The notes under the pieces are model-generated. The model saw only the letters and a list, made by a program, of their open reading frames with translations. It was not told where the DNA came from and ran no database searches. Made by a program: the position numbers and the translations under genes. Below are positions 3,882 to 33,287 of a stretch of DNA of 64,000 nucleotides, one piece after another. The stretch lies in the NCBI RefSeq assembly GCF_056712565.1, contig NZ_CM160072.1. One strand, given 5' to 3'. Positions within the stretch are counted from its first letter, which is position 1. Every line of letters begins with the position of its first letter.

Positions 3882-4735
3882 GCACCATCCTGAAATGGGC
3901 GGGAAATAAAACCGCCATTATGTCCGAACTGAAAAAGCATCTTCCTGCTGGCCCGCGACTGGTTGAACCTTTCGCGGGTTCCTGTGCAGTGATGATGGAG
4001 ACGGAGTACCCCAGCTATCTTGTTGCGGATATTAATCCTGATTTAATCAACCTCTATAAAAAGGTTGCTGCTGATTGTGAATCGTTTATATCTCGCGCCA
4101 GAGTTTTATTTGAGATCGCAAACAGGGAGGTGGCTTATTACAACATAAGGAAGGAGTTTAATTACTCAACTGAAATTACTGATTTCATGAAAGCGGTATA
4201 TTTCCTGTATCTCAATCGTCACGGTTACCGTGGTTTATGTCGCTATAACAAGAGCGGGCATTTCAACATTCCCTACGGCAATTATAAAAATCCGTATTTC
4301 CCTGAAAAAGAAATTCGCGCATTTGCAGAAAAAGCCCAGCGAGCAACGTTTATCTGCGCCAGCTTTGATGAAACGCTGGCGATGTTGAAGGCGGGGGATG
4401 TGGTGTATTGCGATCCACCGTATGACGGTACGTTTTCCGGCTATCACACTGACGGCTTCACTGAAGATGACCAGTATCACCTGGCATCTGTTCTTGAACA
4501 TCGGTCATCAGAAGGACATCCGGTCATTGTTTCTAACAGTGACACATCCCTGATCCGTTCGCTGTATCGCAATTTTACTCACCACTATATCAAGGTAAAA
4601 CGCATCATCGGTGTGGCAGCTGGCGAGGGTAAATCAGCAACAGAAATCATTGCTGTTTCCGGGCCGCGCTGCTGGGTGGGATTTGATTATTCGCGTGGCG
4701 TGGATAGTTCTGCCGTGTACGGAGTACGTGCATGA
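3878..4735 (+). CDS. dam: DNA adenine methyltransferase (Dam-like N6-adenine MTase), prophage-encoded
   Basis: N-terminal SAM-binding region KWAGNK...EPFAGS and catalytic DPPY motif (VYCDPPYDG); start ATG 3878 after GGAG. Confidence 0.85.
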
Positions 4736-7146
4736 GCCATGCCGATATGAACAACTGCTGCGGCTTTAACGAGGCTGCCGCAGCGTTCTCATGGAACAGC
4801 CCGAAAAAGGCCATTAACCCTTATCTGGACCCGGCGGAAGTTGCGCCGGTTTCTGCGCTTTCAAACCTGATCACTCTGTACGCTGCCGATAACGAGCAGG
4901 AACAGTTGCGCCGCGAGGCACTGAGTGATCAGGTCTGGGAGCGTTATTTTTTTAATGAATCACGTGATCCTGTCCAGCACGAAATGGAGCAGGATAAGCT
5001 CATTAGCCGGGCAAAGCTGGCGCATGAGCAGCAGCGTTTTAATCCGGATATGGTCATTCTGGCGGACGTCAACGCCCAGCCTTCCCATATCAGCAAGCCG
5101 CTGATGCAACGTATTGAATACTTCAGCAGCCTGGGCAGGCCAAAGGCTTATTCCCGCTATTTACGTGAGACGATTAAGCCATGTCTGGAACGACTGGAGC
5201 ATGTACGCGACAGCCAGCTATCTGCATCTTTTCGTTTTATGGCAAGCCATGTAGGGCTGGACGGCCTGCTGATTCTGCCTGAAATGAGTCAGGATCAGGT
5301 GAAACGCCTGTCTACCCTTGTCGCTGCGCATATGAGCATGTGCCTTGATGCAGCTTGTGGTGATTTGTATGCCACCGATGACGTTAAGCCAGAAGAAATC
5401 CGCAAGACATGGGAAAAGGTGGCAGCGGAAACCCTGCGTCTGGATGTCATCCCGCCTGCGTTTGAGCAACTCCGTCGGAAAAGAAACCGCCGTAAACCCG
5501 TGCCCTATGAACTCATTCCGGGTTCGCTGGCGCGTATGTTGTGCGCCGACTGGTGGTACCGGAAATTATGGAAAATGCGTTGCGAATGGCGGGAAGAGCA
5601 GTTGCGTGCTGTCTGCCTGGTCAGCAAAAAAGCATCTCCCTATGTCAGCTATGAAGCCGTGATGCATAAACGTGAGCAGCGCCGCAAGTCACTGGAGTTT
5701 TTCCGTTCTCATGAACTGGTGAACGAAGAGGGCGACACGCTGGATATGGAAGACGTGGTAAACGCCAGCAGCAGCAACCCGGCGCACCGCCGCAATGAGA
5801 TGATGGCCTGTGTTAAAGGTCTGGAGCTTATCGCGGAAATGCGCGGTGACTGCGCCGTTTTCTACACCATTACCTGTCCGTCACGTTTCCATTCCACGCT
5901 CAATAACGGCAGACCAAACCCAACCTGGACAAATGCGACGGTAAGACAAAGCAGCGATTATCTGGTCGGCATGTTTGCTGCATTTCGTAAGGCGATGCAC
6001 AAAGCCGGGTTGCGCTGGTATGGCGTGCGGGTGGCTGAGCCGCATCATGACGGTACAGTTCACTGGCACCTGTTGTGTTTTATGCGCAAAAAAGACCGCC
6101 GCGCCATTACTGCATTGTTGCGTAAGTTTGCCATCCGTGAAGACCGCGAGGAACTGGGTAATAACACTGGTCCACGCTTTAAATCTGAGCTGATAAACCC
6201 GCGCAAAGGAACGCCGACAAGCTACATCGCGAAATACATCAGTAAGAACATTGACGGGCGTGGTCTGGCTGGCGAGATCAGCAAGGAAACGGGTAAATCC
6301 CTGCGTGATAACGCTGAATACGTTAATGCCTGGGCGTCTCTGCATCGTGTTCAGCAATTCCGCTTCTTTGGTATTCCAGGGCGTCAGGCTTACCGTGAAC
6401 TGCGGTTGTTGGCTGGTCAGGCGGCAAGGCAGCAGGGTGACAAAAAAGCAGGTGCGCCGGTACTGGATAACCCGCGCCTTGATGCCATCCTGGCTGCTGC
6501 TGATGCTGGCTGTTTTGCCACCTACATTATGAGGCAGGGCGGCGTGCTGGTTCCTCGCAAATATCACTTGATCAGAACCGCTTATGAAATCAATGAAGAG
6601 CCGACCGCCTATGGCGATCACGGTATTCGTATTTATGGCATCTGGTCACCCATTGCAGAAGGCAAGATCTGCACTCATGCAGTGAAGTGGAAAATGGTTC
6701 GTAAAGCCGTTGACGTTCAGGAGGCGGCAGCCGACCAGGGCGCTTGCGCCCCTTGGACTCGTGGCAATAACTGTCCCCTTGCTGAAAATTTGAACCAACA
6801 AGGGAAAGACAAATCAGCTGATGGGGATACCAGGACGGACATTACCCGCATGGATGACAAGGAGTTGCACGATTACCTGCACAGTATGAGCAAAAAAGAG
6901 CGCCGGGAACTGGCTGCAAGGTTACGCCTGGTGAAACCGAAACGGCGTAAAGACTACAAACAGCGAATTATAGACCATCAGCGACAGCAGCTCGTCTATG
7001 AACTGAAGTCCAGAGGATTTAATGGCAGCGAGAAAGAGGTCGATTTACTCCTTCGCGGCGGCAGTATTCCGTCAGGAGCAGGCCTGCGTATCTTCTATCG
7101 GAACCAGCGTTTGCAGGAAGATGATAAGTGGCGAAACCTGTATTAA
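4732..7146 (+). CDS. A: Replication initiation endonuclease gpA (rolling-circle, P2 A family)
   Basis: 804-aa ORF downstream of the early operon; HxH (VHWHLL) and tyrosine-rich nicking region; synteny with P2/186 gene A. Confidence 0.85.
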
Positions 7147-7238
7147 TTACGCGGGTTAACAATTCGTGCTCTTAATAATACCAGGCATATCAGGCTAATG
7201 AACGTAAAAAAACGTTTTACATCAGTAAGATTATTATA

Positions 7239-7258
7239 TACTGTAAATATAAACAGTG
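7239..7258. promoter_or_regulatory. LexA (SOS) box
   Basis: TACTGTAAATATAAACAGTG fits CTGT-N8-ACAG exactly, about 40 bp upstream of the ATG at 7300. Confidence 0.6.
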
Positions 7259-7299
7259 GTTATGTATACAGTATTGCTTGTGGTGTCATAGGAGGAAAG

Positions 7300-7488
7300 A
7301 TGCAGGACTATTTTTTGGAGTCTTTGAAGCTCCAGCGCATTGATTTTTTTCTTAAGCTTGTAGCGGCTAGTGAGTGTAGTGATGAAGAGAAGGGGCTGGC
7401 TTTGCAGTGGGTTTCTGAACTGACAGATGAACTCATGGCAAAAATCAGAACCCACGAATACAACCGCTCAATGGATGTCATCAGCTGA
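7300..7488 (+). CDS. Small hypothetical protein (62 aa), probably SOS-regulated (Tum-position gene)
   Basis: ATG 7300 with AGGAGG RBS; immediately downstream of LexA box. Confidence 0.45.
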   Translation: MQDYFLESLKLQRIDFFLKLVAASECSDEEKGLALQWVSELTDELMAKIRTHEYNRSMDVIS

Positions 7489-7498
7489 GGTGACCTTT

Positions 7499-7732
7499 AT
7501 GCGCATTGAAATAATGATCGATAAAGAGCAGAAGATTAGCCAGTCTACCCTGGACGCCCTTGAATCCGAGCTTTACCGCAATCTGCGCCCCCTGTATCCC
7601 AAAACGGTAATTCGCATCCGCAAAGGTAGCTCTAACGGTGTGGAACTGACCGGACTGCAACTGGACGAAGAAAGAAAACAAGTGATGAAGATTATGCAGA
7701 AGGTGTGGGAAGACGACAGCTGGCTGCATTAA
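7499..7732 (+). CDS. dinI: DinI-like protein
   Basis: MRIEIMIDKEQ...WEDDSWL resembles E. coli DinI (MRIEVTIAK...WESADDWF); co-transcribed behind LexA box. Confidence 0.7.
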   Translation: MRIEIMIDKEQKISQSTLDALESELYRNLRPLYPKTVIRIRKGSSNGVELTGLQLDEERKQVMKIMQKVWEDDSWLH

Positions 7733-7891
7733 GAAAAGTTGCTGGCGTCTGAACTTGGTTCTGGCGTCAGCAAGGTTGAACAACGAGTACAGTGAGGCGT
7801 TAGGTGTGGCGTTTATTTGATGAGTGAACGCCCGTTCTGCGATAGGTTCGGAGATTAAGGTTGAAACTACGGGCAAAATACCATCTTTTTC

Positions 7892-8317
7892 CTACTTAAT
7901 TGAGTCCAGTAACAAGTTACAGTTACTCTCATTGTAGAGAGAACGAGCAATTAGTGTTACCTGCTTTCCATTCATTCCCGGCTTATCCCATAACACAGCT
8001 TCTTGCGACGCCACAAATTCAGCATAATCAATTATGCGTTGTTCGTGATCTGGTTCCTCATAGCCAAAGTATGAGAGCGCATCGTTGTAAGCGTGGTAAG
8101 CTGCTTTCTGTAATATCTTGATATCGGCTGTAGGTACTTGCTCCGTGTAGCTAGGATCTAATTGTGTGCTACTGCCATAGAATGCACATGAAAGGTAAGA
8201 TATTGATTTCTGTTGAGCTTTAGTTCCTTTCTCATAGTTTTTAGCTGTTACCGCCTGAACAGGGACGCTAACAAAGCTTGCAACCAGAATTAAAATTAAT
8301 ACGTAAAAGCTTTTCAT
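7892..8317 (-). CDS. Secreted hypothetical protein (141 aa) with signal peptide; accessory cargo
   Basis: N-terminus MKSFYVLILILVASFVSVPVQA is signal-peptide-like; AT-rich; lies between dinI-like gene and cos. Confidence 0.6.
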   Translation of the reverse strand: MKSFYVLILILVASFVSVPVQAVTAKNYEKGTKAQQKSISYLSCAFYGSSTQLDPSYTEQVPTADIKILQKAAYHAYNDALSYFGYEEPDHEQRIIDYAEFVASQEAVLWDKPGMNGKQVTLIARSLYNESNCNLLLDSIK

Positions 8318-8615: not shown

Positions 8616-8659
8616 CGTAGATCATGCTCCTGCATGAAAACCACTACATAAAGCGGGCA

Positions 8660-8678
8660 GGCGTGGCGGGGATACGAG
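8660..8678. other. Putative cos (cohesive-end) site of the prophage
   Basis: GGCGTGGCGGGGATACGAG resembles the 19-nt P2/186 cohesive-end sequences as I recall them (GGCGTGGCGGGGA...); lies upstream of portal Q as expected. Confidence 0.45.
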
Positions 8679-8692
8679 CGCGCGCTTGCACC

Positions 8693-8721
8693 TTGATATT
8701 CACGGTTTGGTTAAGTATTGT
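8693..8721 (+). promoter_or_regulatory. Putative sigma70 promoter of the protease operon
   Basis: TTGATA - 17 bp - TATTGT, about 40 bp upstream of ATG 8762. Confidence 0.35.
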
Positions 8722-8761
8722 CTTAGTCAGAGTCCATAACATATTACAGAATGGAGTTGTT

Positions 8762-9409
8762 ATGATTGGTCCTGAATATGTCGTAGTTGTTGGCGTGCTT
8801 AATGCAGGTTTGGTTAGTTTTTTAGGAACAGGTTTTTTTATTTCTAAGGATAAAATAATTACTTCCCGCCATGTTATTAATGGGTTTTCTTCTAACTTAG
8901 TTATTTCTCCATCTAATATAAATAACTTTAATAGTTATCAGGATACAAGTGTTGATAAATTTCAATGTATTGGAGTTGATGTTATTGATGAAGATCCAAT
9001 AAAAGACTTATGTGTGTTAAAAATTAAAAATGCACCTGTTTATGAACCTTGCCTAAAAATTGCTACTCTTGACGATGTTAATGTCGGTGAAGATGTGGGT
9101 ATTTTAGGTTTCCCACATTGTAATGAAAATAGAAAAGTATTGACATTTCAAACGGCAAAAATAGGTGCAAAAGTTTTACTTTCAAGCAGTAATATTCAAT
9201 CTAAACATGCCGTTATAAATATCCAAACCAGACCTGGTCAATCGGGATCGATTGTATTTAATTTAAAAAATGACTCGGTAATAGGCGTCTTGGTTGGCGC
9301 TTATGCAAATAATTCTGGAGGTTCTGTTTTGGTTGGAGGTATTAATCCAGCTGAACTACATCAGACAACTTATGCGGTTTCTGCAGAATATGTTAAGGAT
9401 ATGTTATGA
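8762..9409 (+). CDS. Trypsin-fold (S1/chymotrypsin-like) serine protease, 215 aa; accessory cargo
   Basis: Catalytic triad contexts in order His (ITSRHVING), Asp (DLCVLKI), Ser (RPGQSGSIVF); GGAG RBS; very AT-rich; track ORF 5' extension to 8624 would cross cos. Confidence 0.8.
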   Translation: MIGPEYVVVVGVLNAGLVSFLGTGFFISKDKIITSRHVINGFSSNLVISPSNINNFNSYQDTSVDKFQCIGVDVIDEDPIKDLCVLKIKNAPVYEPCLKIATLDDVNVGEDVGILGFPHCNENRKVLTFQTAKIGAKVLLSSSNIQSKHAVINIQTRPGQSGSIVFNLKNDSVIGVLVGAYANNSGGSVLVGGINPAELHQTTYAVSAEYVKDML

Positions 9410-9852
9410 TTGCTATACCAAATGAAGATGCTGAGTCTTGGTTGTCCACTTTAAAAACGTATCAATCTTCATCTGTCAGGAATTTTCTCGAAAATGGCGA
9501 TGAAGAAAAGGCTCTTGAGCTATGGCTAACTGCATCTGGCCCAAGTTCAGTTGCTCAATTTGGCGGTGATAATTCAAAAATGCCGGGAAGAAAAGCGTTT
9601 GTTGAGCAGTTTAAATTAGAGTTTAAGGCTTTTGTATGTGGAGGTGATAAATATGCAGAGGAGAGGGAATGTTTAGGAGCACTGACTGGTGATGTTAAAA
9701 CATACTTTGTAGGGGTGATCTCTTCGGCAATTGCGGGTTCTTTGGGGGCAACAGCAACATTTATTGCTCCAGCTGTAGTAATTATGTTGATAGCTGTCTC
9801 AAAAATGGGAATTAATGCTTGGTGTTCATTAGAGACAACGACAGAATCTTAG
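9406..9852 (+). CDS. Small protein (148 aa) with C-terminal hydrophobic membrane anchor; partner of the protease
   Basis: ATGA start/stop overlap with protease gene (translational coupling); C-terminal segment YFVGVISSAIAGSLGATATFIAPAVVIMLIAVS is hydrophobic. Confidence 0.7.
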   Translation: MIAIPNEDAESWLSTLKTYQSSSVRNFLENGDEEKALELWLTASGPSSVAQFGGDNSKMPGRKAFVEQFKLEFKAFVCGGDKYAEERECLGALTGDVKTYFVGVISSAIAGSLGATATFIAPAVVIMLIAVSKMGINAWCSLETTTES

Positions 9853-32978: not shown

Positions 32979-33068
32979 TTCTTCGCAATGGAGAACTTTT
33001 AAGTTTGCAAAATGGAATAATACGGTATCATTGTTGTGAATTTAGCAAAAATGGGGAGAACTCGAAAA

Positions 33069-33287
33069 ATGATGATTTGCCCACTGTGTGGAAGTGCCGC
33101 CCATACTCGCAGCAGTTTTCAGGTATCTTCATTGACCAAAGAGCGTTATAACCAGTGCCAGAACATTAACTGCAGCCATACTTTTGTTACCCATGAAACT
33201 TTTGTTCGTTCGATTGCAACACCAAAAGAGTCTAATCCAGTTCAGCCGCATCCAATGAAATCAGGACAGGTGGCGCTCTCTCTTTGA
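33069..33287 (+). CDS. ogr: Ogr late-gene transcriptional activator (zinc finger)
   Basis: MMICPLCGSAAHTRSS...CQNINCSHTF: Cys4 zinc-binding pattern as in P2 Ogr; last prophage gene. Confidence 0.8.
   Translation: MMICPLCGSAAHTRSSFQVSSLTKERYNQCQNINCSHTFVTHETFVRSIATPKESNPVQPHPMKSGQVALSL

Follow-up and report, generated by a model that had tools for sequence, protein, structure and literature searches.

Induction of 186-like phages by the LexA-Tum route has been textbook knowledge since the work of 1989-1998, and P2 is a non-inducible prophage. In phage 186, Tum is a protein of 146 aa in which an N-terminal antirepressor half and a C-terminal DinI-like half are fused in one ORF, and shorter in-frame forms that contain the DinI-like part are annotated in the 186 record as 'modulate SOS induction'. 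Tum resembles an antirepressor fused to DinI, and tum is split in two by a stop codon in Fels-2 and PSP3, where antirepressor function is assigned to the upstream gene (Lemire et al. 2011, PMC3121763). For PSP3, this assignment is given there as a personal communication of G. Christie, cited second-hand via Bunny et al. 2002, and the binding of CI by the fused 186 Tum is likewise given as a citation of Shearwin 1998 (both in PMC3121763). The PSP3 record itself describes tumA as "similar to 5' end 186 tum; UV induction of prophage" and tumB as "similar to dinI and 3' end of 186 tum". Bunny et al. 2002 is said to be the primary source on the Fels-2 tum split and on lexA-null lethality. Expression data exist for Fels-2: in Salmonella TA100, the mutagen MX raised expression of its operon STM2726-2727-2728 by as much as 14.8-fold, on par with umuDC (PMC2225428). 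Functional data exist for the P2-like prophage DuoHS of E. coli HS, in which the Phollow study constructed an in-frame "tum" deletion; with this Δtum allele, and likewise with lexA(Ind-), mitomycin C no longer caused lysis or viral foci (PMC11195241, PMC12055606). A more distant parallel is provided by GfoA, GftA and FsoA of Gifsy-1, Gifsy-2 and Fels-1, which are small LexA-controlled antirepressors that bind a non-cleavable repressor (Lemire 2011, PMC3121763). As in the locus described here, these antirepressors are co-transcribed with a dinI homologue, and some act in trans on other prophages; unlike in this locus, dinI comes first and the repressor is DicA/RacR-like. The likeness drawn here is one of regulation and mode of action.

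The locus analysed here lies within a stretch of 64,000 nucleotides (the window), and with a probability of roughly 90% it represents the tumA-tumB SOS operon of a Fels-2/DuoHS-type, 186-like P2-family (Peduoviridae) prophage inserted beside ybjL in E. coli, the mechanism proposed below included. The replication gene A, which encodes an 804-aa P2/186 gpA endonuclease (4732-7146; Pfam Phage_GPA, 2.1e-127), is followed by an intergenic region of 153 bp and then by a 62-aa ORF (tumA) and a DinI-like gene (tumB). The order of gene A, LexA box, 62-aa ORF and DinI-like sequence is common to the window, PSP3, Fels-2, E. coli HS and 186 (where the DinI-like sequence is fused), and the gene A-tumA-DinI order is also kept in SEN8 as well as in Klebsiella and Yersinia phages. 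The placement of tumA directly downstream of gene A and directly upstream of the DinI-like sequence is that of the first half of a split Tum. The prophage begins before window position 1, so that int is truncated at the left edge, and extends to ogr at ~33.3 kb (33036-33287); beyond the tum module lie a cargo region and then the portal, terminase, capsid and tail genes, D and ogr, followed by host ybjL. This ybjL is 100% identical to that of E. coli HS, and the chromosomal insertion site is the same as that of DuoHS. The module had originally been placed at the right end of the prophage; since the integrated prophage continues to ogr, the module is interior, and only on the virion map, as delimited by cos, does it come at the right end. 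In P2, by comparison, gene A is followed by Orf91 (DUF3850), tin and old, and a search for an equivalent of the module found neither tum nor DinI there, which fits the known non-inducibility of P2.

The nearest relatives share this arrangement to different degrees. Fels-2 has the same gene pair, STM2728 and STM2726.1, downstream of gene A and preceded by a LexA box; its STM2728 shares 98% identity with the window TumA, box 1 is identical and box 2 is near-identical (2 mismatches), and the difference is an extra downstream gene, STM2726, in the operon. PSP3 likewise carries two genes behind a LexA box downstream of gene A, but its box is single and its TumA belongs to the 186-type subfamily (phrog_1993), which is only remotely similar to the window protein. 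Phage 186 resembles the window in having a LexA-repressed promoter with the -10 inside the box, the antirepressor/DinI order, the position after gene A and a 186-type CI as target; it differs in that the two halves are fused, internal starts also produce the DinI-like part by itself, only one LexA box is present and orf97 comes next. The original prediction spoke of a 186 tum accompanied by a DinI-like ORF, which needs amending, as the DinI-like sequence in the 186 record is the C-terminal half of Tum itself and the downstream orf97 is unrelated. DuoHS is the closest of these systems, with the same promoter, double box and RBS and a protein identical to the window TumA at 61 of 62 residues (the one change being T51S); the two prophages differ in the cargo that follows DinI, which consists of two hypothetical proteins in DuoHS and of a 141-aa ORF and a PDC-M35 pair in the window.

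How is the operon held silent in the lysogen? A LexA (SOS) box at 7239-7258 (TACTGTAAATATAAACAGTG) has the perfect CTGT-N8-ACAG core at 7241-7256, exactly where it had been predicted; 17 of its 20 bases agree with the textbook consensus TACTGTATATATATACAGTA. The bare CTGT-N8-ACAG 16-mer is within chance in 64 kb, with 2 found versus 0.73 expected and at least two occurrences in 19 of 100 shuffles, whereas the stricter TACTGT-W8-ACAGT palindrome, which is present at box 1 with 0 mismatches, is beyond chance at 0.02 expected per window. A perfect-core box was also found upstream of all ten tumA-type genes compared (the window, E. coli HS, Fels-2, SEN8, Klebsiella, Yersinia, ESSI2_ev015, Cronobacter ESSI-2, PSP3 and 186), despite strongly diverged flanks. 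A second box, missed in the original prediction, overlaps the first by 5 bp at an offset of 15 bp (7254-7273, CAGTGGTTATGTATACAGTA). The left half of box 2 is degenerate (GTGG) and its right half is perfect, such that 6 of 8 core positions and 15 of 20 positions overall match.

Judged by its spacing and its similarity to bacteriocin operators, the predicted unit at 7239-7273 is a colicin-type pair of overlapping SOS boxes. The 35-bp double-box unit matches ~140 small Col-type plasmids at 84-92% identity, and the three plasmid matches inspected have it shortly ahead of the genes for colicin Y, pesticin and a klebicin. The colicin and pesticin operators share with the window the box offset and the GTGG left half of box 2; they differ in that the -35 is 9 bp closer in the window, so that box 1 overlaps the -10 itself, and in that the genes behind the window operator are unrelated to bacteriocins. 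Colicin-type double operators are described as being bound by two LexA dimers and as giving very tight repression (PMC2994835). The tum promoters of 186, PSP3 and the ESSI-2 type, in contrast to the two boxes of the window, have a single LexA box.

The promoter was placed by comparing position and spacing with those of the annotated 186 p95 (-35 TTCACA, N18, -10 TACTGT). The presumed -35, TTTACA at 7216-7221 on the plus strand, would be the counterpart of that of p95, and the presumed -10 is TACTGT, the first six bases of box 1, after a spacer of 17 nt. All tumA upstream regions, and the colicin promoters too, keep a -35 of the form TTTACA, TTCACA or TTGACA. The -10 matches TATAAT at only 3 of 6 positions, as it does in annotated 186 p95, and the tum promoter went undetected in a generic promoter scan. 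At the level of sequence, the signature of a LexA-operated promoter, a perfect-core box lying over the presumed -10, is kept in 10 of 10 loci, and we infer that LexA binds at 7239-7273. The MX response of the Fels-2 operon and the block by lexA(Ind-) in HS lend indirect support to SOS-dependent expression.

The 62-aa ORF runs from an ATG at 7300 to 7488 on the plus strand, and the Shine-Dalgarno sequence AGGAGG (7290-7295, plus strand), recognised from the sequence and from the match to an HS primer, lies 4 nt ahead of this ATG, which bears out the ORF with a strong RBS that had been predicted. What had been left more open was the identity of its product, which was considered a different and possibly novel factor on the grounds that it is far shorter than 186 Tum. 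The comparisons instead identify the predicted 62-aa protein as the separately encoded N-terminal half of a 186-type Tum (TumA), its length being accounted for by the split, for which PSP3 and Fels-2 are precedents. The window TumA matches phrog_698 at 3.6e-38, phrog_8554 at 2.4e-8 and phrog_1993 at 0.0022; the N-terminal 70 aa of 186 Tum match the same three families with phrog_1993 at 2e-23, phrog_8554 at 3e-12 and phrog_698 at 6.7e-6, and PSP3 TumA matches phrog_1993 at 2.7e-32. Alignment of two independently built alignments with hhalign gave an E value of 5.5e-5 at a probability of only 66%, co-linear over residues 5-42 of both. A search of 1.84 billion representatives with the window-type profile yielded 103 matches, mostly of 50-90 aa, and 34 of the 98 significant window-profile matches examined were also recognised by an independent 186-type profile (E<1e-5); these shared matches include the 186-type protein P0334 and many intermediates. 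The family has a common motif, roughly R-I/V-E/D-x3-R/K-L-x5-C-x3-D/E-K/R-x-h-A-h-x-W/L-h-A/S-E. Because pairwise BLASTP of the 62-aa protein against 186 Tum returned no alignment and the hhalign probability is 66%, the case for homology between TumA and Tum rests on profiles, intermediate sequences and synteny, and the similarity of the N-terminal halves of 186 and the window is detectable with profiles only.

The BLASTP result is also what would favour a rival reading, in which the 62-aa ORF would encode an SOS factor or antirepressor that has nothing to do with Tum and represents a new family sharing no more than its position with tum. Such a reading could further appeal to the searches of Pfam, NCBIfam and PADLOC, in which no family covered the 62-aa ORF, and to RefSeq, which labels the ORF "hypothetical protein" throughout the 1125 of 5426 complete E. 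coli genomes (about a fifth) in which the module was found. We nevertheless regard it as extremely improbable, given that profiles and intermediate sequences tie the protein to both the N-terminal half of 186 Tum and PSP3 TumA, that a DinI-like half comes next exactly as in the fused 186 gene, and that a split of tum is already in the literature (PMC3121763). The window module is the already-described split-tum DNA-damage switch, real but ordinary; a split-tum operon with a functionally tested, near-identical orthologue is already known, and a claim of novelty is unsupported. A literature search on the names TumA and TumB found only unrelated uses of those words.

Structural comparison adds little to the assignment of TumA as the N-terminal half of Tum. 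AlphaFold models TumA as a hairpin of two helices (pLDDT 88), the turn of which holds the conserved Cys, and a Foldseek search of this model against the PDB gave nothing below E 2.3 and generic hairpins only; because the model is a simple helical hairpin with generic matches only, the fold search is uninformative on function. A PDB sequence search with the TumA family profile gave a chance match only (E 0.6). Selection on the two ORFs is purifying: dN/dS is 0.05-0.09 (~0.09 for tumA) when calculated against three diverged orthologues, SEN8, Klebsiella phi4.1 and Yersinia MLG42, at dS of ~0.8-1.9; E. coli HS and Fels-2 are too similar for an informative dN/dS on the DinI ORF.

The E. coli HS genetics bear on the function of TumA. 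The published HS deletion primers match window positions 7280-7302 exactly and 7486-7508 with 1 mismatch, and because of this match the gene deleted as tum in HS is the orthologue of the 62-aa ORF. Together with the profile homology to Tum, the phenotype of this deletion upholds the earlier proposals that the locus is an SOS-induction module and that its small upstream ORF is an antirepressor. Could the loss of induction in HS reflect TumB instead, with TumB as the real inducer (e.g. via RecA filament activity), TumA as an accessory or coupling element and the Δtum allele polar? The tumB gene starts 11 nt past tumA, and its RBS GAGGTG (7487-7492) overlaps the tumA stop codon, which makes translational coupling possible, and the short DinI-like Tum forms annotated in 186 as modulating SOS induction would also suit this explanation. 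The HS deletion, however, joined the tumA start and stop codons and retained the tumB RBS (primer NHR28), although it could in principle alter tumB translation via coupling. Antirepressor activity is moreover reported for the upstream gene of PSP3, by way of the communication relayed in PMC3121763. Two phages speak to the same question: ESSI2_ev015 (L005, 1201-1413) and Cronobacter ESSI-2 (L006, 1201-1425) have a tumA-like gene, 40-44% identical, with a perfect LexA box and lack a DinI-like gene. Directly next in order are a gene for an ogr-like zinc finger and the portal gene. Because ESSI-2-type phages keep a LexA-boxed tumA without a DinI gene, TumA is supported as an autonomous effector. 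No member of the DinI family is known to have CI as a target, which also counts against TumB as the inducer, and we judge this explanation to be very unlikely.

The same deletion bears on the proposal that the operon is a moron, an SOS-induced accessory module that acts on the host and is dispensable for prophage induction. Some database entries for the protein are named 'Levan regulatory protein', a stray label, and the module adjoins a cargo hotspot; yet Δtum abolishes induction in an HS system whose protein is 61/62 identical, and the position of tum beside gene A is fixed across genera while the cargo varies, so that we attach next to no credence to this proposal.

The second gene, tumB (7499-7732, plus strand), encodes a 77-aa DinI-like protein (phrog_189) at the place where a DinI homologue had been predicted. 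It matches Pfam PF06183 with 81.3 bits (cut-off 24.2; 6.6e-23) over profile positions 1-63 of 63, which places it in the DinI family, and it scores 42.7 bits against NCBIfam NF007893, the chromosomal DinI equivalog, for which the cut-off is 111. By these sequence scores it is classified as a phage DinI-like (TumB) protein and not as the host dinI orthologue. The window TumB is 78% identical to PSP3 TumB and 41% identical to residues 71-146 of 186 Tum. A terminator scan found no canonical terminator after tumB. A GC-rich stem-loop without a U-tract lies directly after the tumB stop (7739-7773, plus strand; RNA fold z = -2.3 for a 103-nt stretch), and similarity among related phages stops between ~7730 and 7787, at this hairpin, which possibly acts as a transcript end or as a stabiliser at the border of the variable cargo.

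Beyond the hairpin, the first cargo gene past the tum operon is a 141-aa ORF on the minus strand (7892-8317) with a signal-peptide-like N-terminus, which matches PHROG 7437 (4e-99, function not assigned) and is shared with E. coli 300709. It is followed on the plus strand by a trypsin-like protease gene (8624-9409) and a gene for a 148-aa partner (9406-9852), which match PDC-M35, a candidate defence system of PADLOC (8e-94 for A and 4e-58 for B). This pair belongs to the variable cargo, which lies between tumB and the portal gene and whose place is taken in P2 by tin/old.

A fundamental question is which repressor TumA would act on. The same prophage encodes a 189-aa immunity repressor on the minus strand (cI, 1132-1701) in which both Pfam domains of a 186-type CI are above cut-off (Phage_CI_repr, PF07022, 8e-34; Phage_CI_C, PF16452, 8e-29), and which is thereby a cognate 186-type CI in the same prophage. 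It is 96% identical to the DuoHS CI of E. coli HS and 32% identical to 186 CI. A lambda-like self-cleaving CI was considered and rejected, in that the Peptidase_S24 score of 16.6 bits is below the cut-off of 23.3 and Δtum blocks induction in HS. By analogy to 186, we treat the window CI as the presumed target of TumA, a pairing in which the two proteins would be in direct contact. Between cI and int, a 63-aa Cys-rich ORF on the minus strand (925-1116) has a signal-peptide-like start and is annotated in E. coli HS too; it has no Pfam match and may be a lysogenic-conversion gene.

The pairing of TumA with CI is not one to one. In E. coli 300709 the 701-bp tum module is 100% identical and sits in another prophage, at the ssrA site and with a different CI and a different Cox/Apl. 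Across the compared set (L017-L022), identical or at least 98%-identical TumA proteins co-occur with CIs that are only 39-48% identical to the window CI, and these divergent CIs are 69-77% identical in the N-terminal HTH domain and 24-38% identical in the C-terminal domain. The occurrence of one TumA with divergent CIs suggests, without amounting to proof, that TumA recognises the conserved CI N-domain and does so without immunity specificity.

A further LexA-like box was observed upstream of int. On the minus strand (789-766), TTGACA-CTGGTTATACATACAGTA is followed by a GGAGGG RBS and the int ATG at 736; the box (CACTGGTTATACATACAGTA) matches 7 of 8 core positions and comes directly after the sigma-70-like TTGACA. 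The box is conserved in 813R9, E. coli HS has it unchanged, and in ESSI2_ev129 and Yersinia vB_YenM_31.17, where the flanks are only ~70% identical, its CTGT-N8-ACAG core is perfect. The box is thus kept across several Peduoviridae lineages (three named genera), with a perfect core in two, and the int promoter may be SOS-controlled. A literature search on P2-like integrase together with a LexA or SOS box found no description of such an arrangement. The combined idea that TumA is generic for 186-type CIs via their N-domain and that the LexA-like operator of the int promoter brings excision into the same SOS regulon is tentative, and we think it rather doubtful as a whole.

These comparisons lead us to propose a model for the DNA-damage response of this prophage. 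In the lysogen, LexA would occupy the overlapping double operator at 7239-7273, covering the -10 and start of a sigma-70 promoter, and LexA bound at box 1 should occlude RNA polymerase, such that the operon would be silent. Upon DNA damage, activated RecA would promote the self-cleavage of LexA and the operon would be transcribed. By analogy to 186 Tum, TumA would then bind the 186-type CI and block its operator binding, the early lytic promoter would be derepressed and the prophage would be induced. TumB would act on RecA filaments and modulate the SOS signal, and would not act on CI; we infer this role as a RecA-filament modulator.

As a discovery the locus carries little weight, given that the LexA-Tum route dates from 1989-1998 and the split tum from 2002, and that the HS gene was tested genetically in 2024-25. 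Its main value is for annotation. The "hypothetical protein" label is an annotation gap and not a biological unknown; with neither a Pfam nor an NCBIfam model for TumA and only a hypothetical label on its gene, the inducibility of these very common prophages is easily overlooked, which a TumA model would fix. Testable hypotheses on the induction threshold and on cross-talk among P2-family prophages arise from the double operator, from the co-occurrence of a single TumA with divergent CIs and from the box at the int promoter. If TumA were generic, a near-invariant tum cassette with a high-threshold double operator would serve many heteroimmune P2-family prophages, and the co-induction of heteroimmune prophages in polylysogens would be possible.
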